Virus record (IMG/VR): IMGVR_UViG_3300032248_000182
Location: 1-56,006 of that record
Source of the DNA: a virus
Lineage: Duplodnaviria > Caudoviricetes
DNA length: 56,006 bases
Reading direction: 5' to 3' (one strand)
Shown: piece by piece, positions 6,840 to 46,300 of the stretch
Numbering within the stretch: position 1 is the stretch's first letter
Layout: every line of letters starts with the position of its first letter
The notes under the pieces: generated by a model
The model's input: the letters and a program-made list of their open reading frames with translations, nothing else
The model's database searches: none
Told to the model about the DNA's origin: nothing
Made by a program: the position numbers and the translations under genes

Positions 6840-7017
6840 GTACGTTGCCTACCTTTTTCCACGTGGAACCTAAAAAAATTTTCGTACGAATTCTTTTGAA
6901 CCAACTAACTTCTCTAGGTAATTTAACAACCATCAAACCATCCCCAACAACATCCCAAATCCAGATGGTGGGGTCTGGCTTTTTTATCGCACCCCAATTA
7001 GGGTCCCATTCATTCAT
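6832..7017 (-). CDS. Hypothetical protein (61 aa)
   Basis: ATGA overlap with the upstream methyltransferase stop; fills the intergenic gap. Confidence 0.6.
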   Translation of the reverse strand: MNEWDPNWGAIKKPDPTIWIWDVVGDGLMVVKLPREVSWFKRIRTKIFLGSTWKKVGNVPK

Positions 7018-7673
7018 AGTACTTTGTAAACGTCGTCAGACCTGTTTGGATCATAGGGGATTACAAACTTATCCACCTGTTCGTATGGAGCCAATTCTTT
7101 TAAAAAGTTTAGAATTTCATCTGTGCCGTTCTCTACAGAGATAACTGGATGATATTGTTTAATCGTATTACTAGCACCCTTGAGCGTATTCAATTCATAC
7201 CCTTCAACATCGAGTTGAATGAAGTCGCACGCTTCTAAGGTAAGGTCGTCAATCATCATTGTAGGAATAGAATAGTCACCTTCATCCGAGATAAAATTTT
7301 CTCCTACATTGTAAGGAGATTTTCTCAGTAGTTTTACCATACGGTGGTTGTCACCAACAGCCGCATGATACTTGTAAATGTCAGCTGATTGACAGTTATT
7401 TACTAGGCAATAAAAACTGAGAGGATCTGGTTCAAACGTATATACACGCTTGAATGTTTCAGCAAGAAGCCTTGGATACATTCCACAGGCTCCGCCAGCT
7501 TGCACACATACATCATATTTCTTAACATGCTTACCCCACATAGTTTTAAGGTGTGGCCATTCTGCTTTGATGATACCCCAAAGTCCTTGGTCAGTAGCAG
7601 TCCAAACCCAAGGAGTTAATCCGTCAACCTCTTCATCAACAATGCGTATTTTATTCTTCGCGTATTCCATCAT
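7014..7673 (-). CDS. FkbM-family SAM-dependent methyltransferase (copy 1)
   Basis: VQAGGACG, VYTFEPDP, FIQLDVEGYELNTLKGA..TI..YHPVISVE. Confidence 0.88.
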   Translation of the reverse strand: MMEYAKNKIRIVDEEVDGLTPWVWTATDQGLWGIIKAEWPHLKTMWGKHVKKYDVCVQAGGACGMYPRLLAETFKRVYTFEPDPLSFYCLVNNCQSADIYKYHAAVGDNHRMVKLLRKSPYNVGENFISDEGDYSIPTMMIDDLTLEACDFIQLDVEGYELNTLKGASNTIKQYHPVISVENGTDEILNFLKELAPYEQVDKFVIPYDPNRSDDVYKVL

Positions 7674-8082: not shown

Positions 8083-8546
8083 TTTTTCAATCCACCTTTA
8101 TTTGTTATTCTTTTTAGTGCAGCAATTTGTTCGGTGGATAACAACGATAGAGCGATTTCTGCCTTTTTGCTCGAGTAACCGTAGACTTCTTTTACAATAT
8201 CAATGTCACCACTTTCTTCTTTCTTGACCCATTTTGAATACCTGTTCTTAGGTCTAATGATATTTATAAGAAAGTCATATTGTAGTTTTTTATCTACAGA
8301 GTGAATGCCGTTAACAATGTTAGCAAAGTGTATGGTATCGGCAAAATAAGACAGAGACTTATTTACAATCCACGGATTGTATTCCTTTTCAGTTACGTCA
8401 GGGTTGTCTGAATCGTTTATGAGGTTGGTCTTTGATTTGTTGATTGAATTTACAAAATCGAACGGTGAATACTGCGCTTTGATCTTAAAGGACTCTTCTT
8501 TGACCTCCTCAACGCCGCCGGTATGCATTACGTCTAAGATATTCAT
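8079..8546 (-). CDS. 62: Clamp loader small subunit (gp62)
   Basis: YNPWIVNKSLSYF.DT, LQYDFL, RYSKW, YGYSSKKA; lies between gp44 and regA. Confidence 0.93.
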   Translation of the reverse strand: MNILDVMHTGGVEEVKEESFKIKAQYSPFDFVNSINKSKTNLINDSDNPDVTEKEYNPWIVNKSLSYFADTIHFANIVNGIHSVDKKLQYDFLINIIRPKNRYSKWVKKEESGDIDIVKEVYGYSSKKAEIALSLLSTEQIAALKRITNKGGLKK

Positions 8547-9481
8547 TTGAACTCACAGTCACGCATAATCTCTGCAAGGCAAGCTACAATGTTAATCTCA
8601 GCGTCAGCAACGAACGCTGCCTTGTATTGATAGTCTGCTAGAGTCAAAACCAAACTAGGAATCGACTCTGGCTTAAGAACATCAACAGCGTTATCATAAA
8701 GACTTCTGAACAATGAAGTTGAGTCAGTGTCAGAGTGTTCGCCAACCCACTTACGCATTGCTGTGAAGTTTCTATCTTTCAGCGCAGTAAAAAGTTCTTT
8801 ATAAGAATCAGCAGAACCACTAGCAAGAATGCTGGAGTCGATACGACCGCCGACGGAATACCTTTGGATTTCATTTAACACTCTCCGCCAATCAGGGAAA
8901 TGCCTAGAGATAAGCTCAACAATAACATCCTTATCATACTCAATTTTCTCAACCTTAAGGATGTTGAACACTCTCTTCATAAACTGAGTGGCAAGTGTGG
9001 GTTTATCTTTCTTGGCAATCTTGAACTCAACAACAGAACATCTAGAGTGTAGAGGAGCAATGATGCGATTCTTAAAGTTACAGGTTAGGATGAACCCGCA
9101 GTTCGCACTATACTCTTCCATAAAGTTACGCAGAGAAGGTTGAGTGCTCTGCGCATTTAGATAATCTGCCTCGTCTAGGATCACATATTTCCGACCACCC
9201 TTAAAGGAAACACTAGAAGCAAACTGCATAATCTCATTACGCAGCGTGTCAATGTTGCCGTTAAGTGAACCGTTGACCACGATATAGTCACAGTCCAGCT
9301 GCTCAAGCATTGCGCGAGCAACGGTGGTCTTGCCTACCCCAGCAGTGCCCGTCAACAGAAGATTTGGGATGTTCTTCTGGTCAACGAACTGCTGGAAAAT
9401 TTTCTTCAACTCAGCAGGAAGAATACACTCTTCAATGGTCTTAGGACGGTACTTCTCAACGAACAAAAATTGTTCAATCAT
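8543..9481 (-). CDS. 44: Clamp loader AAA+ subunit (gp44)
   Basis: EKYRP, GTAGVGKTT, ILDEAD, LHSRC. Confidence 0.97.
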   Translation of the reverse strand: MIEQFLFVEKYRPKTIEECILPAELKKIFQQFVDQKNIPNLLLTGTAGVGKTTVARAMLEQLDCDYIVVNGSLNGNIDTLRNEIMQFASSVSFKGGRKYVILDEADYLNAQSTQPSLRNFMEEYSANCGFILTCNFKNRIIAPLHSRCSVVEFKIAKKDKPTLATQFMKRVFNILKVEKIEYDKDVIVELISRHFPDWRRVLNEIQRYSVGGRIDSSILASGSADSYKELFTALKDRNFTAMRKWVGEHSDTDSTSLFRSLYDNAVDVLKPESIPSLVLTLADYQYKAAFVADAEINIVACLAEIMRDCEFK

Positions 9482-9497
9482 AATATAAATCTCACTG

Positions 9498-9938
9498 TTA
9501 TTTGATAAAAATCGTTACATCTATACCAGTCGACGGCTCGACCTTTTCTTTCGCCTTTCTTTTTTTCTTTAATTTAACGATTTGAACGTTAGCCCAACTA
9601 TCATCACTTCGAAGCTCAAGGCTTGCAAAAGTCTCATTGTCAGGCTTTGCGCCGTTGTATTTGTCCCAACAAATTACGCAATCATCCCTTGTTGTATTTG
9701 GATTATACTTTATATAGAAGTTAGATAAAAGCTGTTCTTCACCGCAAATCCTACATTTTTTTACGGCTAATTCTTTAGAAGAACCCAGTGTTCCAGCACT
9801 ATCTATTCTAATTGTATTGACTCTCACACCATAAGGCAAAGTCCTCCAAACATATCCCGCACTGTGTTTTCTTTTCAACGCAGGTTTAGTCGTGCACCTA
9901 TTGATGATGTTCATGGCACTAAGCTCGCTTGGGTTCAA
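9498..9938 (-). CDS. Hypothetical protein with a Cys4 zinc-ribbon motif
   Basis: CRICGE...NFY...DDCVIC and a basic C-terminal patch; overlaps the gp45 stop (TTG start). Confidence 0.55.
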   Translation of the reverse strand: MNPSELSAMNIINRCTTKPALKRKHSAGYVWRTLPYGVRVNTIRIDSAGTLGSSKELAVKKCRICGEEQLLSNFYIKYNPNTTRDDCVICWDKYNGAKPDNETFASLELRSDDSWANVQIVKLKKKRKAKEKVEPSTGIDVTIFIK

Positions 9939-10591
9939 TTAAAAGTAGAAGTAGCCTCGGTCGCAATCCAGTACGTCATTCCTCCTGCAGCAAATTGAGA
10001 GATACCTTTTGAAGAGATTGACACTTCATAAGTTGCATCCATTAGCTTAAAGTTTTCGCTCTTGAACACAGCATTGAAGGTCTGATCCGTTTCACCAACT
10101 TCAACGACGAATGAATCAGCTGTTGGATTCTTCATATCAACAGCCTTTAGAGAGATAATCTTACCATCACCAACGAAAGCAATCTCAGGAAGCTGCATAA
10201 CGCTGCCAGCACGTTGTACTTGCTGAAGGTCTGCGTTGGTTAGTGTCATATTAATCTCAGCGAGAGGTAACGACACGTCCTTTGCCGGTGGCGTGGCAAA
10301 GCTGGATGCATCAGCATAAACATATACCAGCTTCTTCTTATCTACGATGATAGTAGCATCCTTCTCATTGATTACGACTTCAGGCGAATCAAACAGAGAA
10401 AGAACGCCAAGGAATCGCGGCAGGTCATAAATCGCAAAGTCACGATCAAACGTCTCATCAATATCTGCCTTGGCCAGAATGTTCTTCTGGGGAGAGATAA
10501 CTCGGAGCGTGTTGCCCTGACGGAACAGCATGCTCTTGTTGATTGATGAGAAGTTCTTCAATACGGAAATGGTCTTGTCACTGAATTTCAT
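9935..10591 (-). CDS. 45: Sliding clamp (gp45)
   Basis: LKNFSSINKS, FAIYDLPRFL, YWIATE; upstream of gp44. Confidence 0.96.
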   Translation of the reverse strand: MKFSDKTISVLKNFSSINKSMLFRQGNTLRVISPQKNILAKADIDETFDRDFAIYDLPRFLGVLSLFDSPEVVINEKDATIIVDKKKLVYVYADASSFATPPAKDVSLPLAEINMTLTNADLQQVQRAGSVMQLPEIAFVGDGKIISLKAVDMKNPTADSFVVEVGETDQTFNAVFKSENFKLMDATYEVSISSKGISQFAAGGMTYWIATEATSTFN

Positions 10592-10605: not shown

Positions 10606-11568
10606 TTAGTTTTTCTTACCAAGTTTTGATGGGTCAGCGGTAGCAGCCGCACCAACCGACGCCAAGTCAGCCAACGAACCACCATAGATGTGGGTTCCTA
10701 CGTGTTGTAGACCAATCCATGGGCACAACCAAACCTTCAAGCCAATCTTTCGCGCCCACTGACAGAACATATAATCTTCTGACAGATAACGGTTAGAATA
10801 CTCAAACCCAAAGACACTGTTCTTCGTATCGCGTACGAAAGCCATTACCTCATCCTTACCAGCCTTGGGATTCTGGTTAAAGAATTCTTCTAGCTCTGGA
10901 ATTATACTTGAATGTTTATTATCAATCAAGGCATCAAAGTACGCTAGAATTTCACGTGAACCGTCGAACGCTGCTGTGCGGACATGGTCCGGGCGATAGT
11001 TGAGCCAAGGATACGCTTCAGAATATTTCTTCAGCGAGGACTTACGGAACATCATAAAACCCGTACCTGCTTCAAGCACTTCTGCTGGTTCGTTTAGAGC
11101 AATCTGATTCTGACCGTTGGCAGGATTGAATACGTAGTCACCCACAAACTTGTCTAGAACATTCGGGTCTTCATCAGCAACACCTTTGTCTACAGCTGCT
11201 TTAATCTTTTCCCAGCTGATACACTTCTTCGGGTAAGGAGCGCAAAGAACATCGTATGGGCTGTCTTCAGACTGAAGAGCCATCATCGTTAGAATGTCGT
11301 TGGCGTTGAACCCGATGTCGCTATCAATGAATAGCATGTGGGTACAATCAGAACGCATAAACTCGTCTACGCAGTAGTTACGTGCACGAGTAATCAGCGA
11401 CTCATTGAACAGGTAGTAGTATTTTACTTCTAGACCGTAATGAACTGCTAGCGCAGATAGGTCGTTAGATGAGCGAGTGAACATACCTGCGCACATACCA
11501 CCATACATTGGCGTAGCGACAAATAGCTTTCGCTGGCGAAGTTCTTCTATTGGGATCTTAATTTCCAT
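10606..11568 (-). CDS. GT-A fold glycosyltransferase-like protein
   Basis: LFVATPMYGG, ESLITRARN, MLFIDSDI (DxD), AGTGFM, YLSEDYMFC, LQHVG. Confidence 0.8.
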   Translation of the reverse strand: MEIKIPIEELRQRKLFVATPMYGGMCAGMFTRSSNDLSALAVHYGLEVKYYYLFNESLITRARNYCVDEFMRSDCTHMLFIDSDIGFNANDILTMMALQSEDSPYDVLCAPYPKKCISWEKIKAAVDKGVADEDPNVLDKFVGDYVFNPANGQNQIALNEPAEVLEAGTGFMMFRKSSLKKYSEAYPWLNYRPDHVRTAAFDGSREILAYFDALIDNKHSSIIPELEEFFNQNPKAGKDEVMAFVRDTKNSVFGFEYSNRYLSEDYMFCQWARKIGLKVWLCPWIGLQHVGTHIYGGSLADLASVGAAATADPSKLGKKN

Positions 11569-11570
11569 TA

Positions 11571-11912
11571 TTATTTCTCCAAATCATGCACATATAATTG
11601 AATAATAGCGTAGTGAATTACTTTGAGAAGATCTTGTTTCCAATCTTCTCTAGAACCCTTACGCCCATAACGTTGAGCATACTTTAAAACATTTCCAACA
11701 CAAAAGCCAGTGCCATGACCGGAGTCGATTATAAACTCGGTAGCCTGATACTTGTTCTGAGAATAATGCTGCCCGTAAGTCTTGTCAATATAAGCCTTCA
11801 GCATTTCCAAAGTCTTATCTTCATTGTATTTATAATCGATCTTTGTCACCCCTCTAACGCAGATCGGTTCATCTTCAATTGATCTGTAAGTCACACCCAT
11901 ACATTCCTCCAA
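11571..11912 (-). CDS. DUF3310-like small protein of nucleotide-modification loci
   Basis: HY, GFCVGNVLKYAQRYGRK, DLLKVIHYA. Confidence 0.8.
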   Translation of the reverse strand: MEECMGVTYRSIEDEPICVRGVTKIDYKYNEDKTLEMLKAYIDKTYGQHYSQNKYQATEFIIDSGHGTGFCVGNVLKYAQRYGRKGSREDWKQDLLKVIHYAIIQLYVHDLEK

Positions 11913-12445
11913 GTATACACCATATGAATAATAAAGTCAACCACATCTTTTTGTTCGTCTAGAGTTTGATTAGAACGTTTCTCAATCACGCTCATCAGTT
12001 CCATATTTGTTAGGATGTTAGCAATCTTAGACTCGCGTCCGGCTAACCAAGTCTCGTTCTGATTACTTCCCCGTTCAGCATAGCGTTCTTTGCGAACGTC
12101 ACGGTCAGTCTTAAGATACACCACAGTGGTGTCATACAAAGAATTGCAGTGTTCAAGGAAGGACGCAGTACATAGTCTATCGCCTTCGAACAGAACAACC
12201 GCACCTTTGTTTAGAGTTCCTAAGAACGATATCGCATCAGGTTGTACAGCCATACTAAGAGCGTCTGTTCCTGAGAACGTTTTATCTTCTTCGTATATAC
12301 CTAAGACATAAAGGTTGTTGGAGTGATGATACCGTACAAGGTTGTGTTTTTCAACCTCATATCCGATACCGAGTCCTTTCATAACATTCTTCATAAGACT
12401 GGTCTTACCAGATCCAGGCTCACCCATAACAGCAATCACTTTCAT
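11891..12445 (-). CDS. P-loop kinase, candidate 5-hydroxymethylpyrimidine DNA kinase
   Basis: GEPGSGKT, LGIY..FSGTDALS, FEGDRL, lid R..RGSNQ; adjacent to the aG/PT-PPlase-like gene. Confidence 0.78.
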   Translation of the reverse strand: MKVIAVMGEPGSGKTSLMKNVMKGLGIGYEVEKHNLVRYHHSNNLYVLGIYEEDKTFSGTDALSMAVQPDAISFLGTLNKGAVVLFEGDRLCTASFLEHCNSLYDTTVVYLKTDRDVRKERYAERGSNQNETWLAGRESKIANILTNMELMSVIEKRSNQTLDEQKDVVDFIIHMVYTWRNVWV

Positions 12446-12446
12446 T

Positions 12447-13592
12447 TTATTCTCCTAGTAATTCAATCCCATCATTAAAATTGTTAGCAAAGCAATCCCA
12501 ATCCTGATCCATCATAATAACTTGACCCGTAAGACGATAGTGATTCTGTTTTCGTTTACCATATCCAGGGTCGGCAAGGTTAGACTCTAGTCTAAGATTT
12601 TTAGGTAGACAATCTTCGCGCATTTTCCAAAAGTGATCAAACTTGTTTCCCCATACGCTCTCGCTATACTTAATGCGATTGTAGAACATATCGTTGTATA
12701 CATTGGGGTAGCGCCTGTCTGGACGATGCCAGGACTTATAACAGCAGAGAGTGCTTTCTAGAGTAAAGTAACTAACATCATTATGCACGATTCTTTGTTT
12801 GGCTTCACTGAACAGCTGGTCGCCTTCTTCTGTTAGCCAATCTATAGTTTCTTTGCTGTATCCTTCAAATTTGTCATTGCCAGAAGCTTTAGTTTCCCAC
12901 CAATCTAAATCATCTCTACCGAGAACCTTGCATAACCCGTTACGATGAGATTTAGAACCGTCAATATCATCTAAGAATAAACTGTTGCAATCTATCGGCA
13001 ACCCTTGTATGCGCAAATACTCTAGGTAGGAAAAGGTAGACAACCTACCGAAGGTCAAGAAGTTGCTTCGTACATATCCCCAAGTATTTTCAAAATTCTT
13101 ATAAACGTCGCCAGTATTGTTAAGACTCTCAAACATATTTACTTGGCTGCCAAATTTGTCAACAAGCGTCTTATATTTCGCGACACAGTTTGAGAACCCT
13201 GTCTTTCCTATCTTAAAATACTTTCTGTCAGAATCCCACCCGCTACCTGCTTTGAAGTTCATATGATTGTCTTGCCACCAATCAGTCAGCTCTTCAATTT
13301 TTATATCTTTAAACTTGGGGAACCGTTCGAAGATGATAGATGTTGTGACGATATGTTGAGAGCATCCGTTGATGAATGCCATCCAGAGTTTATCTTCAAG
13401 GTCTAAGTTGTAGTAATTAGCAAGCCAAGGTAAAGCGTAGTATACTGCTCCAGGATGCGCTCTATGCTTCAAGTGGAATTCATAGAACCTTAAGAACACT
13501 TCTCGTCGATACTGCGGCAGGCGAAAGTCTAATCCTCTATGAAGATCTTTTTCTTCGGGTACGTTATTTAATTGACACCATCTTGCTGTCAT
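12447..13592 (-). CDS. aG/PT-pyrophosphorylase-like amino acid:DNA transferase (HhH-glycosylase fold)
   Basis: FGRLSTFSYLEYL (HhH-like), SHRNGL, C-terminal LESTLCCYKS...RYPNVYND; context of kinase and PLP enzyme. Confidence 0.78.
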   Translation of the reverse strand: MTARWCQLNNVPEEKDLHRGLDFRLPQYRREVFLRFYEFHLKHRAHPGAVYYALPWLANYYNLDLEDKLWMAFINGCSQHIVTTSIIFERFPKFKDIKIEELTDWWQDNHMNFKAGSGWDSDRKYFKIGKTGFSNCVAKYKTLVDKFGSQVNMFESLNNTGDVYKNFENTWGYVRSNFLTFGRLSTFSYLEYLRIQGLPIDCNSLFLDDIDGSKSHRNGLCKVLGRDDLDWWETKASGNDKFEGYSKETIDWLTEEGDQLFSEAKQRIVHNDVSYFTLESTLCCYKSWHRPDRRYPNVYNDMFYNRIKYSESVWGNKFDHFWKMREDCLPKNLRLESNLADPGYGKRKQNHYRLTGQVIMMDQDWDCFANNFNDGIELLGE

Positions 13593-14728
13593 CGATATGC
13601 ACCTCTATACGATTTCTCATATTCTTTGATTGTGGGTGGGATTTCTCCAAGAGTATATTTTAATTTGTCATCTAGGTAATTCTTATTTGGAGCACTACCC
13701 ACAATCCACATCATCGTTTTTTCATTTAAGATTTCAGGCATTCTTTCATTTACGAAAGTCATCACCTTACCTTCGTAACGAGGATGGAAGTCGATACCTT
13801 CGTAGTTATATGGCATAGTGTTATCGTACCTAACATAGTTAGTACTGTGTAGATCATAGTAGTGCAAGTTATACTCAAAATCTATTTTACTGCTTTCCGT
13901 AAAAGAAGTCAAGTCATTATTATACTTCTGTTCTTGCTTCCTGGCATCAGTGTAATTTCTTTTGAACAATCTAGTGGGCACACTAGACAGCTTTTCTATA
14001 ATCTCTAATCTTTCTTCAATCAAATCTAATTTGTTAGGACCAATTCCGATAAGATGCACATCCCGTAAGTTTTTAGGTTTGAACCGAGCAATACCATAAA
14101 GAATAGATGTAGCAGAGTTGCAAGAGCCAGCAGGGATAATCAATCGCTCGATATGATCCGGAATGTTCTTAACTTGTTCAGAGCCAACGTAGTGGAACTG
14201 TTCAACTCTACGTGCGGGATTAACCTTGTGGTCTAGCGTTATCCCGTATTCAAGATAAAAATAATCCGATAGCGTCTCATCTTCTTCTAAGCACTTTTTA
14301 ACTTTGCGTTGAAGAACAGGATTGTATGCAATTTTAGGATTAAAAATAAATCTAGAACCAAACCAATTCGCTATGGAAACATTCTCGTGAGCGATAGCAG
14401 CTTTCGGATTTGTAGCACCGATAACGTGCACGGAATCAAACCCAAAGTGTTTGGCCAAGACAGCCTGGAAAGAATGTTGCGGCGAATGTACAGAAGTGCC
14501 AGATATAATTCCTACCGGATTCTTTGTCTTGTTGTATTCGCTGAACAACCAAAGACATTGCCTACCTTTAGAACCGTTGACAAATCCGTATCCTAAAGGA
14601 GCAAAGTAATCTTCCCTCTTGAAGAACAACTTTCCGTGTTGTTCTACAGGAGTCATATCGTAAAGATAGTCTTCCCACTTTATAACATTCCTGTTTAAAG
14701 AGAGGGTGGGGAAGATTGTCTTGTTCAA
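13589..14728 (-). CDS. Fold-type II PLP-dependent enzyme (ACC deaminase/cysteine desulfhydrase-like), candidate DNA-amino acid decarboxylase or lyase
   Basis: TPVE...FKREDY...NGSKGRQ (PLP lysine), SPQ, IPAGSCNS, PRYEGK, WIVG; TTG start overlaps the upstream TGA. Confidence 0.82.
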   Translation of the reverse strand: MNKTIFPTLSLNRNVIKWEDYLYDMTPVEQHGKLFFKREDYFAPLGYGFVNGSKGRQCLWLFSEYNKTKNPVGIISGTSVHSPQHSFQAVLAKHFGFDSVHVIGATNPKAAIAHENVSIANWFGSRFIFNPKIAYNPVLQRKVKKCLEEDETLSDYFYLEYGITLDHKVNPARRVEQFHYVGSEQVKNIPDHIERLIIPAGSCNSATSILYGIARFKPKNLRDVHLIGIGPNKLDLIEERLEIIEKLSSVPTRLFKRNYTDARKQEQKYNNDLTSFTESSKIDFEYNLHYYDLHSTNYVRYDNTMPYNYEGIDFHPRYEGKVMTFVNERMPEILNEKTMMWIVGSAPNKNYLDDKLKYTLGEIPPTIKEYEKSYRGAYR

Positions 14729-16038
14729 GAGAAAAAATCCTCAAGTGTCGCGGCAGAAGATTTTCCATACGGGTCAACCATATTATGTTTCTTCATATAA
14801 TCGAACCACTCTTTATCTTCCCACATTCCAGGAGATACACCGTTCCATAGCGGACGAGAAAACTTGTGGCTCTTGTCGCTGCGACGTTCTTCAACATATT
14901 GTTTACGTAACGACTCATAGTCCCAAGATTTACAATCTAGCATATCTTCTCGAAAGTATGCCACAAGACTCATTCTATCAGGCTCTACGCCTTCTGCAGG
15001 AGCTTCTAGCGGAGCATTAGAGTGAATAGCCGTATGGTTGGCTACAAGCAACAAGTCGCCCGGACGCAGGTCTACAGCAGCTCTAAACTCAGGAAGAATA
15101 AGCTCTGCTCCCTTCCAGCCCTTACCAAAGGTGCATAGATTAGAGAACCCGTCACCCAAGTCACCAGCGTCTAGATGCGCAGCAGTGCGCCAGTTATGAT
15201 TAACTGTAAGCGTAGTAAACACTGTCTCATCAATCAGAAACCGTTTATCCAGCTTGTCAGCCGCAGCACGTTGCGCCGCCCAACGTTGAGGTAACAGATT
15301 CTTAAACTCGTTATTCAGACGATTGAGGAACGGGAAAGATTTTACAAACAGCTCAGGATTCTTTTCCGTGAAAGAAGTAGCACGTCCATAAGGAATACGA
15401 GGATACCGAGAGTAGTAACCCGCCACACCTGAGATTACCGTCTGCGCATAGTTGGTTTCAGAAATAAAATTATCTCTGATGTATGTGGCTTCTGCGATTC
15501 TAACTTCTTCAGACTTACTCTTTAAGGAATCTACCCAACGGTCAAACCACCCGAAGTATGGGTCGTGTTCTTTACATACTTCGCTACGGAGCCAAACGTT
15601 GCCGCGAGTTTCTTCTTTAGCGTTTCCACCATCAGCAAATTTTTGTTTAATAGACTCTAGCGATTCAGAATCTAGAAAAGAGTTGTGAGCTTTGGTAAGG
15701 AATTCAAGAACCGCTACTTGATACGGGGTAACCCATTCTCGACCGCCTCTAGAAGCAGAGTGTAATACTTCTCCACGAGGACCAGCAGCCATACCACGAT
15801 TTTGAGATTCGCTCGCTGCGGTAATAAGACCTTCATAGCATAGGTCTAGCTCTTCTTGAGTAAAGACGTTTTTGCGAAACCTCACTACGACATTTTCTTC
15901 GGTCATATCGCCGTGTAATGATGGAGCGTATACGTCCGTATCTTCAGTTAGAAGATGATCGTAATGCGAGCTGTCTAAGAATTTTCCGATTAAATCGTTA
16001 CAATCAAATTTCTTTTCGCAATAAATCACTTTTGTCAT
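14725..16038 (-). CDS. TET/JBP-family 2OG-Fe(II) dioxygenase
   Basis: FTTLTVNHNWRTAAHLDAGD (HxD), VDLRPGDLLL, HTAIHSN (distal His), RMSLVAYFRE (2OG-binding Arg). Confidence 0.88.
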   Translation of the reverse strand: MTKVIYCEKKFDCNDLIGKFLDSSHYDHLLTEDTDVYAPSLHGDMTEENVVVRFRKNVFTQEELDLCYEGLITAASESQNRGMAAGPRGEVLHSASRGGREWVTPYQVAVLEFLTKAHNSFLDSESLESIKQKFADGGNAKEETRGNVWLRSEVCKEHDPYFGWFDRWVDSLKSKSEEVRIAEATYIRDNFISETNYAQTVISGVAGYYSRYPRIPYGRATSFTEKNPELFVKSFPFLNRLNNEFKNLLPQRWAAQRAAADKLDKRFLIDETVFTTLTVNHNWRTAAHLDAGDLGDGFSNLCTFGKGWKGAELILPEFRAAVDLRPGDLLLVANHTAIHSNAPLEAPAEGVEPDRMSLVAYFREDMLDCKSWDYESLRKQYVEERRSDKSHKFSRPLWNGVSPGMWEDKEWFDYMKKHNMVDPYGKSSAATLEDFFS

Positions 16039-16956: not shown

Positions 16957-17676
16957 TTAAATTACTTTGTAAATGCCGTCAGCGACGGATTGATCAACTT
17001 TTTTATACCCGAATGGTTCTAGCAGCTTTAGAATATCTTCTTCTAGATTTACAGCGTTAGAGTTTCCGCCGTGATTAAGTCCACGATATTCGTCGTCTGT
17101 ATGTCTGTTGAAGTATTCAAAGAACCCGAGTTCACAAGCAATAACTGGCTTGTATTTCTCGATAGTCTTTAGTGCACCCCTAATCACATTCAACTCATAA
17201 AACTCAACATCAAGTTGCATAAACCCGCAGGCATCTAGATTTAGAGAGTCAACTGTAATCATAGGAACAAATCCTTGATCAATCTCGTTGACTGTATGCG
17301 TACCCGTGTTAATAGAGGAAGGACGATTGACCGTAATTAGTTTATTCTCAGCGCCCAACGCAGCTTGCATTTTAACGATGTTGTTCTTCTGACAGTTGAA
17401 CGTTAAGCACAAGAAGTTTAGCGGGTCTGGTTCAAAAGTATATACTCTCTCAAACATATCAGAAAGGAACCGAGGATGCATTCCCATACAACCGCCAGCC
17501 TGAATGCAAACTGAAAAATCAGTTACGTGTTGCTTATACTTTTCTTTATGAGAGTTTGTCCAGTCGACGATGATACCGTTCCAGGCTTGATGGTCTTGTG
17601 TAATCCAAAGCCAAGGCGAGATACCTTCTACGGCTTCCATTCTCATTTCTACTTGATCAATATAATTGTCACTCAT
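16957..17676 (-). CDS. FkbM-family SAM-dependent methyltransferase (copy 2)
   Basis: IQAGGCMG, VYTFEPDP, MQLDVEFYELNVIRGA..TI.KYKPVIACE. Confidence 0.88.
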   Translation of the reverse strand: MSDNYIDQVEMRMEAVEGISPWLWITQDHQAWNGIIVDWTNSHKEKYKQHVTDFSVCIQAGGCMGMHPRFLSDMFERVYTFEPDPLNFLCLTFNCQKNNIVKMQAALGAENKLITVNRPSSINTGTHTVNEIDQGFVPMITVDSLNLDACGFMQLDVEFYELNVIRGALKTIEKYKPVIACELGFFEYFNRHTDDEYRGLNHGGNSNAVNLEEDILKLLEPFGYKKVDQSVADGIYKVI

Positions 17677-39214: not shown

Positions 39215-42200
39215 TTACAAACCAGTGAGAAATCCGAAGAATCCATTTTGCCCGTACGTTTTTTGATCTGTAATTACTGTCCATCCTATATTATTCGCAT
39301 TCGTGCAGTTTTGCCCTCTCCACGTAGCTCCGCCTGTTACCGTGGTGCTATTAATGTTACAATGTTCAACAAAAGCAGTTCCAGTTGTTTGAGTTAGAGT
39401 AAGAGTGGCAGTAGTATTTGCTCTAGCCAAAGTACACGGTAAAGACGCTGTGCCCGTTAAATACAAGTTAGCAAACGTAGTATTACACATATAGAATCTG
39501 CTAACTCCTGCAGATGAAACTAAAGAGTTAATATTAGCCGAAGAAGATTTAAAATAAAAAGTTCCACCTGCGGCGTCTGTTGTAACATTATAAAGATTTG
39601 CAACACTTGTCACGTTTGAAGTACCGCTAGTGCTTATAGAACATGTTTGTGCATAACAAGACGTTGAATTAATTGTGATCATATCTTGACCATTAGTTGT
39701 AGTAGCATTATTAGATGTCCATGTTCCAGATCCCATGTACAACGTAAATCCAGATTCAACTATAATTCGTTTAAATGTTACATCGTAATTGTTTACATAT
39801 AGCGTGCCTCTATACAAACGAAATGGAGCATTTGTTCCACCAAGCAACGTTGAAGCATCTAGCGTAACGTTCATATTGCTATTTAATTGCCAACTAGCGC
39901 CTACACCACCATCATCAAACCAAACCCCGCAACCGTTAAAAGCATCACACGTAATAGTTTTAGTTGTAGCTGCCGTTCCAGCAAAAACAAAATACGTTGG
40001 AGGATTAGGGCTACTTTGTTTAATAATATTGCCAGAATTCATGGTTAAATTACCATAAACCCTAAAACTGTCATCATTGTTACCTCCTGCATATATGTCA
40101 AATATTTTTCCAGCCCCTACTGCCCAATTTGATAAATCAAGATCTAATATAGACATTAATGGATTAAACGTAGGATCCGCTAATAATATATTAGGACAAG
40201 CAGATGAAACTTTAATACCTAATTTTCGAGTATCGGTATTAAGTGCAGATAATCCTGTAACATATACTGTAGGATTCCCAGTAATCGTTAAATTAGTGTC
40301 ATTTCTATGTGTAAAAGAACTTCCAGTAATAACTAAATAATCACCAGTGCCCAAATATAATGATCTAACGTTCGCATTACTTGTATCAAATCCATTTACT
40401 GTTAAAGTATAGTTATTTAAATCTAATGTGCCTGCGGTTAATGTAAATGTGCCATTTGTAGTCAGCGTCATAGCAGTTTGTAATTGAAATGTAGCTCCGG
40501 GAGAATTAACTGTAATTGGGAATGGTATCGATATACCATTTGTTACAATATATTGCGTTCCAGAAGTTGCAGCGAACGTAGTAGCATTAGTACCAGTTGT
40601 TATGGTATATCCTGTATTAAGTGTTAAAATTCCGTATATCGTACGAGCAGTATTAGTCAGAGTTCCTGTAAACCCATTCATAATCAAATTATAATATACT
40701 CCACTAAGGGAAAGAGAACCTGCTCCCGCAGTAACACTTAAGTTTAGTGCGTTACTTTCAGTTCCTCCAGTAGTACCCATAATAATAGTTCGTGTACCCG
40801 TTACCATTGCTCCGTTTACTGTAATAGTAGGAGTTCCTGTAAAGGTAAATCCAGTCATAGTAGTCATATCAATAACAGTAGCCGTAGCCGTAGCCGTTAC
40901 AACGATACTACCTGTAGTGCCAAAGGTTATAGCTCTTGTGTTTGAGTTAGTGCTACTAAAGATACCTGTAGTAAGAGTTAAATTGTTTAGTGCAAGAGTA
41001 CCATTAGTCAGCGTAGTTGTTCTTGTAGCGCCAACAGTTAATGCATCTTGTAAAGTCCAAGTACCTCCAACGCCATCGAAAATAACAGGAAAGTCAAATG
41101 TCTTGCCAAAAGTAGTAATAGTTTGACTACCAGTAGAGGCAAACGTGACGGTATTTGTACCAGCAGTCAAAGTCATACCGGCAGTTAATGTTAACGTTCC
41201 TGCAATAAGCAAAAAGTTATTGGCTAACGTAACTGTCGATCCGGTAAAATTCAAATTTCTTACAAACCCAGTCACAGATATAGTATCTGAACCTGCTGTA
41301 ACGTTTACTGATAAAGCATTAACAGCAGAACCGCCACTGCTAGAAGTTGCCATCGTCACTGTTCTTGTTACAGCACTAGCATTACCACTTAACGTGATAT
41401 TCGAAGTACCAGTAAAGGTAAAATTGGTCATTGTCGCCAGCGATACTACAGTAGCAGTGGAAGTTGATGTAACTGTTATTTTGCCTGTAGTGCCAAAAGA
41501 TATAGCTCTAGTATTTGAGTTACTACCAGCAAAAATGTTACAGGTAAGCGTAAAGTTGTTTAATGCGAGTGTGCCGTTAGAAAGAGATGCTGTACGAGTA
41601 GAACCTAAAGTTAATGCATCTTGCAACGTAAACGTGCCGCCAACGCCATTAAATGTTACTGGAAAATCAAACGTTTTACCTAATGAGGTTATTGATTGAC
41701 TGCCAGTAGAGGCGAACGTAACACTATTCGCCCCAGCAGTCAAAGTCATACCGGCAGTTAATGTTAATGTCCCGAAAATACTTAACGTATTATTAGCTAA
41801 CGTAACTGTTGATCCAGTAAAAACAGCATCCCTAACAACTCCTGATAATGCTATAGTATCTGAACCAGCGGTAACGTTTAATGTCAAAGCATTAGTACCA
41901 GTACCGTCAGTTGTCCCCATCGTTACTGTTCTTGTTACAGCACTAGCATTACCACTTAACGTGATATTCGAAGTACCAGTAAAGGTAAAATTGGTCATTG
42001 TCGCCATCGATACTACAGTCGTTGTTGTAGTCGTAGGGATTAATATCTTGCCTGTAGTCCCAAAGGTTATAGCTCTAGTATTTGAGTTACTACTAGAAAA
42101 ATCTTGGCAAGTGAGCGTAAAGTTGTTTAATGCGAGTGTGCCGTTAGTTAAGGTAGCAGTTCTAGTCGACCCTAAAGTTAAGGCATCTTGCAATGTAAAC

Positions 42201-43177
42201 GTGCCGCCAACGCCATTAAATGTTACTGGAAAATCAAACGTTTTACCTAATGAGGTTATTGATTGACTTCCTGTAGAAACAAAAGAAACTATGCCCACAC
42301 CAGCAGCTAATGACATACCGGCAGTTAATGTCAATGTTCCAACTATACTTAACGTAGCATTGTTTAATGTTCCGGTAAATCCTGTAAAATTTAAATCCCT
42401 AACCCAACCCGACATAGTTACATTATCAGACCCTGCTGTGACATTTACTGTCATTGCAATACTCGCAGAGCCACCAGTACTACCAACTTGAACAGTTCTA
42501 GTAACACCAGCGGCTGCATTACCGCTTATTGTTAAATTGGATGTACCAGTAAAGGTAAATCCTGTCGTTGTTGATATAAGGAAAGGATTTGAAGTACTTG
42601 TTATAGCACTTAAAATTTTACCAGTAGTTCCAAATGCTATTGATCTAGTATTTGAATTGTTACTATTAAACAGAACACAAGTAAGAGTAAAATTGTTTAA
42701 GTCTAATGTGCCTGTTGTTAAAGTAAGAGTGGTTGACGAAACCGTCATCGCATCTTGAAGAATATACGACACGCCAGCCGTATGGTTAAAAGTTACAGTA
42801 CAAGCAAAGGTGTTGCCTGCAGAAGTAATCGTTCTATTTGTCGCAGTGGCACGAAAAGTAAGAGTCCCGGAATAACTGAATGTAAAGTTAGAAGCAGGTA
42901 AAGTGAAACTGCCATAGACGTTTAATGCAGCTGTACCTGCTAATGTCATTACACCATCTAATGCGCTAGTCGAGAAACTGAGACAGTTAGCGACGGATGC
43001 GGCATCTACTGTAACAGTAAATGCAGTAGTGCCAGTATTAGAGTTTTGATCAAATACTACGTCGTCAGCAGACGTAGGTAGATTACCAACAGCAGGAGCA
43101 CCATTGCTGGTTGCAGCCCAGTGATTGGTTGCATCACTCCAGTTACCAGATCCTCCTACCCAATATCGAGTTGCCAT
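39215..43177 (-). CDS. Large beta-solenoid adhesin/tail-spike-like protein with ~190-aa tandem repeats
   Basis: N-terminal RYWVGGSGNWSD...W...P.S.DDV.FD; repeated LQDAL...LTNGTLALNN.TLT...SNSNTRAI.FGTTG. Confidence 0.7.
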   Translation of the reverse strand: MATRYWVGGSGNWSDATNHWAATSNGAPAVGNLPTSADDVVFDQNSNTGTTAFTVTVDAASVANCLSFSTSALDGVMTLAGTAALNVYGSFTLPASNFTFSYSGTLTFRATATNRTITSAGNTFACTVTFNHTAGVSYILQDAMTVSSTTLTLTTGTLDLNNFTLTCVLFNSNNSNTRSIAFGTTGKILSAITSTSNPFLISTTTGFTFTGTSNLTISGNAAAGVTRTVQVGSTGGSASIAMTVNVTAGSDNVTMSGWVRDLNFTGFTGTLNNATLSIVGTLTLTAGMSLAAGVGIVSFVSTGSQSITSLGKTFDFPVTFNGVGGTFTLQDALTLGSTRTATLTNGTLALNNFTLTCQDFSSSNSNTRAITFGTTGKILIPTTTTTTVVSMATMTNFTFTGTSNITLSGNASAVTRTVTMGTTDGTGTNALTLNVTAGSDTIALSGVVRDAVFTGSTVTLANNTLSIFGTLTLTAGMTLTAGANSVTFASTGSQSITSLGKTFDFPVTFNGVGGTFTLQDALTLGSTRTASLSNGTLALNNFTLTCNIFAGSNSNTRAISFGTTGKITVTSTSTATVVSLATMTNFTFTGTSNITLSGNASAVTRTVTMATSSSGGSAVNALSVNVTAGSDTISVTGFVRNLNFTGSTVTLANNFLLIAGTLTLTAGMTLTAGTNTVTFASTGSQTITTFGKTFDFPVIFDGVGGTWTLQDALTVGATRTTTLTNGTLALNNLTLTTGIFSSTNSNTRAITFGTTGSIVVTATATATVIDMTTMTGFTFTGTPTITVNGAMVTGTRTIIMGTTGGTESNALNLSVTAGAGSLSLSGVYYNLIMNGFTGTLTNTARTIYGILTLNTGYTITTGTNATTFAATSGTQYIVTNGISIPFPITVNSPGATFQLQTAMTLTTNGTFTLTAGTLDLNNYTLTVNGFDTSNANVRSLYLGTGDYLVITGSSFTHRNDTNLTITGNPTVYVTGLSALNTDTRKLGIKVSSACPNILLADPTFNPLMSILDLDLSNWAVGAGKIFDIYAGGNNDDSFRVYGNLTMNSGNIIKQSSPNPPTYFVFAGTAATTKTITCDAFNGCGVWFDDGGVGASWQLNSNMNVTLDASTLLGGTNAPFRLYRGTLYVNNYDVTFKRIIVESGFTLYMGSGTWTSNNATTTNGQDMITINSTSCYAQTCSISTSGTSNVTSVANLYNVTTDAAGGTFYFKSSSANINSLVSSAGVSRFYMCNTTFANLYLTGTASLPCTLARANTTATLTLTQTTGTAFVEHCNINSTTVTGGATWRGQNCTNANNIGWTVITDQKTYGQNGFFGFLTGL

Positions 43178-43386: not shown

Positions 43387-46300
43387 CTAGAAGCCAAAGT
43401 TCTTCGCTACAATATTCCACTTGGTTTGCGTTGAGTTGTACATAAAGCCAACGTAGTCGTATTTAGAACCGCTAGATGTTGTGGTAGGTAACGCCAAATC
43501 TGTTGACCCCGAAAATGCAGCATTCCAAGAAAGAGTTTGTGCGTTAACACAACGTATTCTAAACATCAGTCTTTGACCGTCTACTGGAGTCCCTGTCGGA
43601 GCACCAATAGTCAATGTGCCAGCAACGGCGGTATTAATTTGTGTTGCCATATCTGTGCTATCAACGTTAGCCGTAATACTGGTTCCGTTAGCATACGAAA
43701 CGACACGAGGAGCACCCACTGTTGTCCAATATACTGAAGTACCATTTGACGATAACACTTGTCCTGAAGTACCAGTAGTAGCATTTGCCGATACAGCAAC
43801 ACCAGATAGTGTTATTTGCGTAGTATTAGCAATAAAATTAGACCCTACGCTAAAGGTTGCAGCATTTACTGTCGTGCCTAATATAGTGTTGCTGAAAGTG
43901 ATATTAGCTTGAAATGTTTGAGTATTAGACCAAGTATATTGAGCAGCTGCGTTTGTGCTACTTCCTGATGTAACGGTAGACCAATATACATTACTACTAC
44001 CGTTAGTAGTTAATACTTGACCTGCTGTTCCTTGAGACCCCGTAGAATCTAATAAAGTAACACCAGCAGGAATTGTTAATCCACCAGAATGTGAAGTTCT
44101 AACTGAAAAACTTAAATTGCTTGTTATACTGTTAGCGTATATCGACCAAACCGCTCTTGAGCCGTATGTTGTATTAGTAGAATAGAATACAAAGTTATCA
44201 TCATTTTGCTGAATGAAGTATACGTTAGAAGAAGCATTGACCGTAGCAAACGTTAATTTTTTGTTGTTAACAGTAAGATTAAGATCTGTATTTGAATTTA
44301 ATACTGTTGTGTTAGCAATAAATCCCGAACCAACAGTAAGGCTAGCAGCGTTGACAGTACCAGTAGTATAGACGCCCGTAGCATTAGCAACAACCGCAGT
44401 GCCAACGTTAGCTGAAGTTGCAGCGTAGAGCGTCGCGGTATTAACTTGACCAGTAACGTTTATAGCAGCAGCGTTAACCAATGTTGCATTAGCAGTAAAT
44501 GTTGTTCCTACCGTATGCGAAGCAGCATTAACTGTACCAGTATGATATGCTCCAGTTGTGTTAGCAATGAAAGATGTACCAACAGTAAGGCTAGCCGCAT
44601 TAACTGTACCTGTATGATAAGCGCCAGAAGAATTAGAATTTAGTCCCCAACTTGTTCCTATTGCGGTTGTATTGACCGTCGTATTACCTGTGCTATTTGC
44701 AAGATTCAATGAAGGAGCACCAGTAATTGTACTATTACCAATGGTCAGTGCTGAACCCGTGAGTGATGTAGTTGGAGCAGTTGTAGAATTACCAGTAATA
44801 CCAAATTGAGAAACTGTTATTTGGACATTACCGCCAACATTCGCAGACGTAGTAGCATAGAATGTTACAGTATTGACTTGACCAGTAATATTAGCGTAAC
44901 CAGCAGATAAATTAGCAGAAACTAACGTTGCATATACGTTAGTGGTGATTACGTTACTAGAAGCATTTAATGTAGTAGCAATTACATTACCATAAAGTGT
45001 TGGCGTCACAACATTAGCAGATGCGTTTACATATCCAGTAACATTGACGTTACCGGAAGTTATAGTACCACCAGATACTGTTAATCCATTTGCGGTAATA
45101 GTGTTAGCGGTAATTATCCAACGACCTATTGTATTACCTAAAGCTAGCGTATTACTTGTTGGATAAAACCCAGAAGTATTAGATACTGTAGTAGTGGTTG
45201 TATGAGAAGCAGCATTAACTGTACCAGTATGATAAAACCCGCTCCCATTTGCAACATAAATTGTAGAAGAGGCTCCGCCAGCATTATAACTATATGCAGT
45301 TATGCTATCAGAAACGACAGACATCCCTTTATCTTTATTGCCGACGTTTGTTGCGGAATATCTAAATAAGTCAATTTGTCCAGTATTATAAGTTCCAGTT
45401 GGCGAAGAGGGCGTATCAATATACATTACCGCCAAATTAGGATAACCGGGAGAGCCAAAAGCGATTTGAGTAGCACCCAAAGAAGTATTGTACGTAAACC
45501 CGCTACCAGAGTCTTTGTAGTAAGAAACTACCGCATTGTAAAAATTTCCAGAGCCAAAATTTGTATACGAACCGGTAGGTGTGCCGTATCCATCAAACGT
45601 GTAAAACGTTAACCCGTTTATCGTTAAACTTGTATTACCATAATCATTGGTCATCGTAAGCGTGGACTCGCTAGATAAAGAATCATACGTCCATCTGGCG
45701 CTGGGCCAAAATCCTATATATGAACTATTTGCTGATGAAAATGAAGCGCCGACGCCATCTATTCTCCAACCATCAGTGTTCGCGATAAATTTATTAGCTC
45801 CTGCAGCAGTAGAAAAAATTCCGCCTAAAGCGTTCGCATTGTAGTTATACGTAGAATTTGATATAGAAAAAGATGACGTGGTTAATTGTAAGTTCGCCCC
45901 AACGTTAGCCGATGTTGATGCAAAAAATGTTGCAGTATTAACTCGACCAGTAACGTTTATAGCAGCAGCGTTAACAAGAGTGCTATTAGCGGTAAAAGCA
46001 GCACCAATTGTATAAGAAGCAGCATTAACTGTACCAGTATGATAAGCACCTGTTGTATTAGCAATGAAATTTGTTCCAACTTTCAATAACGCAGAGTTAA
46101 CACTTGTAGTAACGTTAGCGTATCCGGTATGTATTAATGCAGTGCTATTTGCTATAAATCCTGTTCCAACAGTCAATAATGCTGAGTTAACACTTGTTGA
46201 TAGATTGGCAGTAGATCCTACTAAATTTGAAGTAACCAGCGTAGGGTTTATGTTAGAAGCCCAATATGCGCCGTTTCCGCTGCTGATTAGTATATCGTTC

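Follow-up and report, generated by a model that had tools for sequence, protein, structure and literature searches.

A putative post-replicative thymidine hypermodification cassette with a long-form TET/JBP dioxygenase in a T4-like phage

Four adjacent genes of a T4-like phage, encoding a TET/JBP dioxygenase (TET), a fold-type-II pyridoxal phosphate (PLP) enzyme, an amino-acid:DNA transferase (AADT) and a P-loop kinase, probably form a post-replicative thymidine hypermodification cassette embedded in the string of genes between gp46 and gp45. These genes are found in the IMG/VR record IMGVR_UViG_3300032248_000182, a linear viral contig estimated to comprise 31% of the phage genome, all 56,006 nt of which were analyzed (hereinafter, the window). 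The initial annotation of this DNA combined six genes into an operon in which a hydroxymethyl group is made on finished DNA by the dioxygenase and passed on to the kinase, the transferase and the PLP enzyme, with a possible parallel glycosylation branch. Comparison with related loci, through gene linkage and conserved catalytic residues, supports the core of this route but not the glycosylation branch, and the two remaining genes, for a DUF3310 protein and a glycosyltransferase (GT), are placed outside the core. The idea of such a pathway is already published, so that its novelty had been overstated: replacement of dUMP hydroxymethylase by TET_JBP enzymes encoded beside thymidine hypermodification genes has been proposed (Lee et al. 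2021, PMC8989533), and active phage thymine dioxygenases have been described and divided into ParB-dependent and ParB-independent subclasses (O’Toole et al. 2026, PMC13229309). No report of a product of the TET-initiated route was found in the literature searched, which covered neither figures nor the appendix of supplementary information of O’Toole et al. What seems to be new is the split between long and short TET forms according to the presence of ParB, the insertion of about 90 amino acids in the long form and the variability of the genes downstream of TET.

The six open reading frames (ORFs) abut or overlap each other on the minus strand at positions 10606-16038, as originally annotated, and are followed by the sliding clamp gene, located 14 nt past the GT gene:

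14725..16038, minus strand: TET/JBP dioxygenase, long form, 437 aa (Pfam PF12851)
13589..14728, minus strand: fold-type-II PLP enzyme of the phage ViI gp226-like family (phrog_3650)
12447..13592, minus strand: AADT, aGPT-Pplase clade 2 (Pfam PF18724)
11891..12445, minus strand: P-loop kinase of the 5-hydroxymethyldeoxyuridine (5-hmdU) DNA kinase type (Pfam PF18751, Ploopntkinase3)
11571..11912, minus strand: DUF3310 protein (Pfam PF11753)
10606..11568, minus strand: GT-A glycosyltransferase (fold of the AlphaFold model, DxD motif)
9935-10591, minus strand: sliding clamp gp45

The TET and PLP genes share a 4-nt TTGA overlap and the PLP and AADT genes a 4-nt ATGA overlap, both in agreement with the initial annotation; the gap between the AADT and kinase genes is 1 nt and that between the DUF3310 and GT genes is 2 nt. 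The kinase and DUF3310 genes overlap by 22 nt with a TTG start, or by 10 nt if the true start is the ATG at 11900, which follows GGAGGA. Equally tight packing (overlaps or gaps of at most 16 nt) characterises all the co-directional genes from gp46 through gp44, so that the six genes are part of a longer string rather than a self-contained operon. Genes for a peptide deformylase, a MazG-like pyrophosphatase and an FkbM methyltransferase are found 5' of the cassette, and scans for promoters (38 sites vs 29.0 expected, standard deviation 5.5) and terminators (13 vs 8.6, standard deviation 2.4) stayed near the shuffle expectation. PHROG scans of the window proteins identified a T4-like myovirus, with genes for DNA polymerase, UvsX, clamp, clamp loader, RegA, gp46/gp47, late sigma factor, helicase, UvsY, major capsid, portal, sheath, tube and terminase; megablast found no nucleotide similarity of the region to phage records.

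The dioxygenase matches the Tet_JBP family of Pfam (PF12851) over residues 209-364 with an E-value of 1.5e-21 (76.8 bits vs a cut-off of 34.9). An alignment of 28 sequences shows no variation at residues H288, D290, H335, H339, R355 and R363, and neither does an alignment of long and short forms together; the iron triad and the 2-oxoglutarate arginine positions are thus preserved, and the HLD...H...R signature noted at the outset is indeed intact. In Foldseek searches with the AlphaFold model (pLDDT 77.9), the top matches were all TET-family DNA dioxygenases (CcTet, hTET2 and NgTET1, E ~1e-8). Structural comparison (VIA) gave a Z-score of 18.9 with hTET2 (257 residues aligned, root-mean-square deviation 4.0, model range 1-384) and 18.6 with NgTET1, against 14.5 or less for AlkB-type enzymes, and the TET-type double-stranded beta-helix fold is confirmed at the level of the predicted model. 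The protein has 2313 homologues at E<=1e-5, and among the 120 matches listed all are 430-448 aa long.

The PLP protein matches phrog_3650 (E 1.6e-116) and has homologues in Ackermannviridae phages, such as the product of Det7 gene 191, with 44-47% identity in alignments that cover more than 90% of the window protein. Residue K54, in the motif NGSKGRQ, is invariant among 25 sequences and, when residues are counted along the alignment, falls at position 92 of the 424-aa protein of Marshall (Kuttervirus-type), a lysine proposed as catalytic for the ViI-type PLP enzyme (Lee et al. 2021, PMC8989533). The profile of the family matches ACC deaminase (1rqx, E 1.8e-4), with K54 aligned to the lysine of GNK; the protein itself has no Pfam match at E<=0.01, including PALP (PF00291), although some homologues do carry PF00291. 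Given that gp226 of ViI decarboxylates O-seryl-thymidine in DNA (PMC8989533), the enzyme is proposed, by analogy, to be a decarboxylase of an amino-acid adduct on DNA.

The AADT matches Pfam PF18724 (ADDT) with an E-value of 8.7e-21 (75.1 bits vs a cut-off of 26.2) and has 1303 homologues at E<=1e-5, some of which are named clade 2 by their source. Its residue C283, invariant in 22 sequences, aligns with Cys247 of PaMx11 gp46, the nucleophile of that enzyme (PMC11472151), within the shared motif ExxLCxxKS, a match that rests on the motif, the hhalign probability being low. The kinase matches PF18751 (E 7e-13, 49 bits vs a cut-off of 27), retains an intact Walker A motif (GEPGSGKT, residues 8-15), has relatives in Cr30, Melnitz, mycobacteriophages and Rhodococcus phage Tonitrus, and is marginally similar to PaMx11 gp49 in BLASTP (E 0.05). 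Single-sequence searches of the PDB with TET, AADT and the PLP protein produced chance matches only, and NCBIfam was of no help in naming five of the six proteins of the region. Judging by the conservation of catalytic residues in TET, the PLP enzyme, AADT and the kinase, all four enzymes look functional.

The association among the four genes was examined from both ends. Starting from TET, window proteins were mapped onto 10 viral loci and 3 records of cultured phages, and the neighboring genes were scanned. In most T4-like relatives, TET stays after the deformylase gene, and the genes 3' of it vary (L numbers denote loci):

L004 and L005 (closest; TET 72%, AADT 80%): distant second AADT in place of the PLP enzyme, then AADT and kinase
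L013: PLP enzyme, AADT and kinase
L008: glutamine amidotransferase, two unknowns, AADT and kinase
L006 and L012: TET-associated glycosyltransferase (TAGT, PF20691)
C48C1: unknown gene and UDP-galactopyranose mutase
Cr30: AADT, TAGT-like gene and inositol-1-phosphate synthase

Such variable genes after a common TET fit the production of a shared hydroxymethyl handle. In DLP6, whose TET is 50% identical to that of the window and which is listed among phages with restriction-resistant DNA (PMC8228603), a nucleotidyltransferase gene lies just upstream of TET. In the reverse test, the 80 best viral loci of the window AADT’s subfamily (46-80% identity) were searched, TET being sought by tblastn at 1e-6: the kinase is present in 76 of the 80, its gene coming immediately 3' of that for AADT, TET in at least 49, the PLP enzyme in 32, and TET, PLP enzyme and kinase together in 9. 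The TET count is a lower bound because all five of the tblastn-negative records that were checked hold a weaker Tet_JBP ORF, above the Pfam cut-off in two of the five and located, by coordinate arithmetic, immediately 5' of the PLP gene in four of them and just past the kinase gene in the fifth. ThyA-family genes are missing from all five records, four of which represent complete genomes of 32-39 kb (G004-G007; L054, L056, L060 and L093) with a short Tet_JBP ORF of 261-289 aa within a PLP-AADT-kinase cluster. TET is thus linked to the kinase, AADT and PLP genes in relatives, as the initial annotation required, and the functional unit predicted by this comparison most likely consists of the four genes.

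Several loci depart from the window in the genes next to TET. The PLP slot of L004 (1758-2798) and L005 (11290-12330) is occupied by a gene for a 346-aa protein that was considered as a diverged PLP enzyme and rejected, being a distant AADT paralogue (phrog_3271, E 1.5e-6), so that these phages have two AADTs and zero PLP enzymes. In L043 (2063-4198) and L047 (6981-9119), ParB and a short TET are followed by ORFs of 711-712 aa that look like PLP-AADT fusions by their sequence matches, with an AADT domain at residues 401-625 in L047 and PLP tblastn matches in the N-terminal half of both. Caulobacter phage Cr30 (L002) has a cysteine-dioxygenase-like gene after TET (8329-8778), and its AADT/TAGT-like pair is followed by inositol-1-phosphate synthase (12293-13474), a hint that the adduct in this cultured phage may derive from inositol or be unusual in some other way. 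In many loci, the PLP slot between TET and AADT holds a conserved gene for a protein of about 246-261 aa that belongs to no family, apart from one weak RrnaAD-like match:

L021: 2983-3759
L025: 7217-7996
L026: 7223-7996
L028: 3260-4045
L033: 2443-3183
L039: 1939-2718
L074: 7183-7968

The proposed order of steps is borrowed from the reconstituted ViI, M6 and PaMx11 pathways and from the mechanism proposed for gp46; Lee et al. (2021, PMC8989533) described, on 5-hmdU DNA, the activities of a kinase, an AADT and a PLP decarboxylase. By analogy, TET would hydroxylate thymine in finished DNA to 5-hydroxymethyluracil (5hmU), the P-loop kinase would phosphorylate the hydroxymethyl group, Cys283 of the clade-2 AADT would attack C6, with expulsion of the phosphate and addition of a free amino acid, and the PLP enzyme, through Lys54, would decarboxylate the adduct to an amine. 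PLP chemistry requires a free alpha-amine and no gene for a radical-SAM isomerase is present in the cluster, and so the amino acid is probably joined via its side chain, like serine in ViI. The product would then be 5-(2-aminoethoxy)methyl-dU or a close analogue, resembling 5-NeOmdU if serine is the donor.

The dependence of some phage thymine dioxygenases on ParB offers a further view of this enzyme. ParB-dependent members are linked with GATases, P-loop kinases and AADTs (PMC13229309). Of 59 TET-bearing rows, 44 with an intact TET and at least 700 nt upstream were kept for the ParB count, 6 being dropped as cut by a contig end and 9 for a short flank; the 23 long-form rows represent 21 distinct records, two contigs having been fetched twice. 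A ParB homologue was found in 0/23 long-form (~435 aa) rows vs 15/20 short-form rows; Pfam confirmed the ParB_N domain for four of the short-form ParB neighbours, and neither the window nor 4 related records yielded a ParB_N gene. The long and short enzymes align end to end and share the NRGxAAG, RYPRIPY, HxD, H and R positions as well as part of the C-terminal extension. The long form additionally contains an insertion of ~90 aa between NRGxAAG and RYPRIPY (approximately residues 97-185), mostly helical in the model, and an add-on of ~35 aa near the C-terminus. Because residues 1-384 of the model align to the TET core (VIA), the additional residues represent an insertion rather than an N-terminal domain of their own. 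The idea that ParB is fused to the long TET and makes up its N-terminal part gained no support from profile-profile comparison with seven ParB neighbours (probability 0.3).

The insertion of the long form is located roughly at the site of the variable insertion the swap of which can abolish ParB dependence (PMC13229309), and the long form may be a natural counterpart of that swap. The long-form motifs GWFD, TNYAQ and LWNGVS were not found among the sequences of O’Toole Dataset S11, by eye and by text search, and 0/6 contig identifiers from the loci compared occur in the O’Toole datasets. Tentatively, and with somewhat less than even confidence, we propose that the long TET of T4-like phages is a natural ParB-independent derivative of the ParB-dependent thymine dioxygenases in which the ~90-aa insertion and the C-terminal add-on replace ParB, and which serves as a fixed first step for varying gene sets; in the window, the outcome would be a post-replicative, possibly sequence-selective aminoalkyl-thymidine, maybe unlike 5-NeOmdU.

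The DUF3310 and GT proteins show a different pattern of association. The former (PF11753, E 6.1e-10) is encoded in 15 of the 80 AADT loci, almost every one of which also carries T4-like marker genes, and in L006/L007, which have TET and TAGT and neither kinase nor AADT; that it belongs to the pathway is doubtful. For the GT, Pfam gives no more than a marginal glycosyltransferase match, and the AlphaFold model of the protein (pLDDT 90.6) adopts a GT-A fold, nearest to STIV A197 (Foldseek E 2.6e-6), followed by GalNAc-transferases, LH3, TarS and other GT-A enzymes, with D82 and D84 of the DxD motif invariant. It does not match the TAGT profile PF20691. Sinorhizobium phage phiM12 encodes a GT homologue (50% identical) between gp46 and gp45, Ochrobactrum phage OC has another (46%) one gene from gp45, and neither phage has a Tet_JBP match; the GT is found in 14 of the 80 AADT loci, nearly all of which likewise carry T4-like marker genes. 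From these comparisons, the GT is probably a backbone gene of the T4-like lineage positioned next to gp45 rather than a part of the cassette, and both proteins are probably lineage neighbours, not core components. Many GT homologues are 640-1180 aa long and contain one or two inteins (a splicing domain and a LAGLIDADG endonuclease) near residues 113-145, including P0363, P0365, P0370 and P0382; the window GT is intein-free. Inteins are usually found in essential, conserved genes.

The parallel DNA-glycosylation branch suggested initially, in which the GT would glycosylate leftover 5hmU as in base J to give mixed amine and sugar modifications, is accordingly rated as unlikely. The GT does accompany TET in 8/13 TET-related loci, its GT-A fold and DxD motif are intact, and glycosyltransferases are the commonest neighbours of phage 5mYOX enzymes, at 31% (PMC13229309); but besides the occurrence of homologues in the TET-less phiM12 and OC, the closest solved folds are protein and polysaccharide transferases, and L006 and L012 have a dedicated PF20691 glycosyltransferase directly after TET, L006 retaining a homologue of the window GT as well. 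Another explanation, which we consider quite unlikely, is that 5hmU has a pre-replicative origin, from a dUMP hydroxymethylase whose gene lies in the unseen part of the genome, with TET serving separately, for example in sequence-specific marking or in feeding the GT. The record is only 31% complete, and ViI, M6 and PaMx11 all use the pre-replicative route (PMC8989533). Against this stand the position of TET next to AADT and kinase genes in at least 49/80 loci of the AADT subfamily and the four complete small phages that combine a Tet_JBP-like ORF in the PLP-AADT-kinase cluster with the lack of any ThyA-family gene. Moreover, the complete relatives DLP6 and C48C1 have no ThyA-family gene, and that of Cr30, the only one found, is a true thymidylate synthase that passes the NCBIfam cut-offs, in contrast to the PaMx11 ThyA-family gene beside the hypermodification genes, taken as a stand-in for dUMP hydroxymethylase, which falls far below them.

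The initial annotation left the modified base as either thymine or 5-methylcytosine (5mC), and the comparison favours the former. No C5-methyltransferase (PF00145) was found in the window or in any of five related records, among them three complete phage genomes; ThyX is encoded in 2/5 related records, and the presence of ThyX or true ThyA implies that relatives make ordinary dTMP. Together, these observations favour ordinary thymine in DNA as the substrate, so that TET likely acts on thymine, not 5mC, as judged from gene content. That TET oxidises 5mC, with the kinase, transferase and PLP enzyme building an amine-modified cytosine, would agree with the oxidation of 5mC by phage TETs of clades A and B and with the suggestion, for some contigs, of a kinase acting on TET-made 5-hydroxymethylcytosine (PMC8256090), and the short-TET relative L073 has a fragment-like C5-methylase match upstream; however, in addition to the missing methyltransferase, the characterised AADT, kinase and PLP homologues all use 5-hmdU derivatives (PMC8989533), and we regard this alternative as the least probable of those considered. 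Hardly more probable is an inactive dioxygenase, leaving the DNA unmodified or modified only with some activator: short-form relatives require ParB (PMC13229309) and ParB_N is absent from the window and the four related records scanned, whereas the invariant catalytic residues and the uniform length of the 120 listed homologues indicate strong selection, and the absence of ParB from all 23 long-form rows implies that the long form evidently works without it.

Several observations weigh against the post-replicative route proposed for the four genes. Some ParB-less clade C1 enzymes were inactive on T/5mC when assayed in E. coli (PMC13229309); by eye, the window TET has the RYPRIPY motif like the ParB-dependent enzymes of O’Toole Dataset S11, so that it may be one of the ParB-less C1 enzymes and possibly inactive like some of them. 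The quality of the TET model is moderate, and a dUMP hydroxymethylase or a C5-methyltransferase could lie in the 69% of the genome that is unseen. As for the transferase, the alignment of its cysteine with that of gp46 has a low hhalign probability, its profile retrieved no AADT from the PDB at E<=1, the solved structure of PaMx11 gp46 (8Z2M) not being reached, and it is only ~26% identical to the Ackermannviridae homologue, so that the donor amino acid is not readable from the sequence.

Other features of the window are less directly connected with the cassette. Two paralogous methyltransferases of the FkbM family (phrog_8156, TIGR01444) are encoded on the minus strand at 7014-7673 and 16957-17676, one of them three genes upstream of TET; L005 has such a gene at the equivalent place, and in Pelagibacter phage HTVC112P TET adjoins an FkbM gene. 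O-methyltransferases are listed among 5mYOX neighbours (O’Toole et al. 2026, PMC13229309). A 146-aa ORF between gp45 and gp44 (9498-9938, minus strand) contains two CxxC pairs and has no Pfam or PHROG match. Three very large minus-strand ORFs, at 39215-43177, 43387-48042 and 51123-55889 (1320, 1551 and 1588 aa), with PHROG matches nil or nearly so, probably encode tail fibre or baseplate proteins, judging by their position.

With the window, the thymine-dioxygenase pathways recently defined in phages gain an example that is T4-like and lacks ParB. The order of TET, PLP, AADT and kinase genes is seen repeatedly in viral metagenomes, also in complete phages of 32-39 kb that have no ThyA-family gene, which suggests that a fully post-replicative route is normal for this AADT subfamily. 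The split between long and short TETs (ParB in 0/23 vs 15/20 rows) provides a testable clue to the gain or loss of ParB dependence, and the cassette is a candidate for reconstitution and for restriction-resistant DNA chemistry.

Among the known systems, the 5-NeOmdU pathway of ViI, with the kinases gp67/gp243, the serine:DNA transferase gp247 and the PLP decarboxylase gp226 (PMC8989533), employs the same three downstream families as the window (kinase, clade-2 AADT and a PLP enzyme with the same proposed lysine), and neither cluster has a radical-SAM gene; ViI, however, makes 5hmU before replication from the nucleotide pool, whereas the window phage has TET directly upstream. In the Ackermannviridae phage Det7, unlike the window, where they are contiguous, the PLP and AADT genes are ~10 kb apart. 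The glycine pathways of M6 and PaMx11 share the kinase and the clade-2 AADT with the same catalytic cysteine motif but involve dUMP hydroxymethylase, N-linked glycine and a radical-SAM isomerase or a flavin lyase, genes for which are not found in the window cassette. The ParB-dependent clade C1 clusters (O’Toole et al. 2026), such as that of Rhodococcus phage Tonitrus, an annotated cultured example (PMC11955845), likewise have TET followed by AADT and a P-loop kinase, with TETs alignable over their full length; the window differs in the lack of ParB, the long-form additions, the T4-like myovirus setting and the presence of a PLP decarboxylase. Finally, ParB-independent clade C2 enzymes, for example 5mYOX97, and the base J system (JBP with a glucosyltransferase) resemble the pathway proposed here in partner-free thymine oxidation, the product of which passes to a downstream transferase, and the relatives L006 and L012 pair a long TET with a TET-associated glycosyltransferase in the same manner; clade C2 enzymes are nevertheless shorter (~290-300 aa) and are usually linked with glycosyltransferases, methyltransferases and endonucleases rather than with AADT and kinase (PMC13229309).

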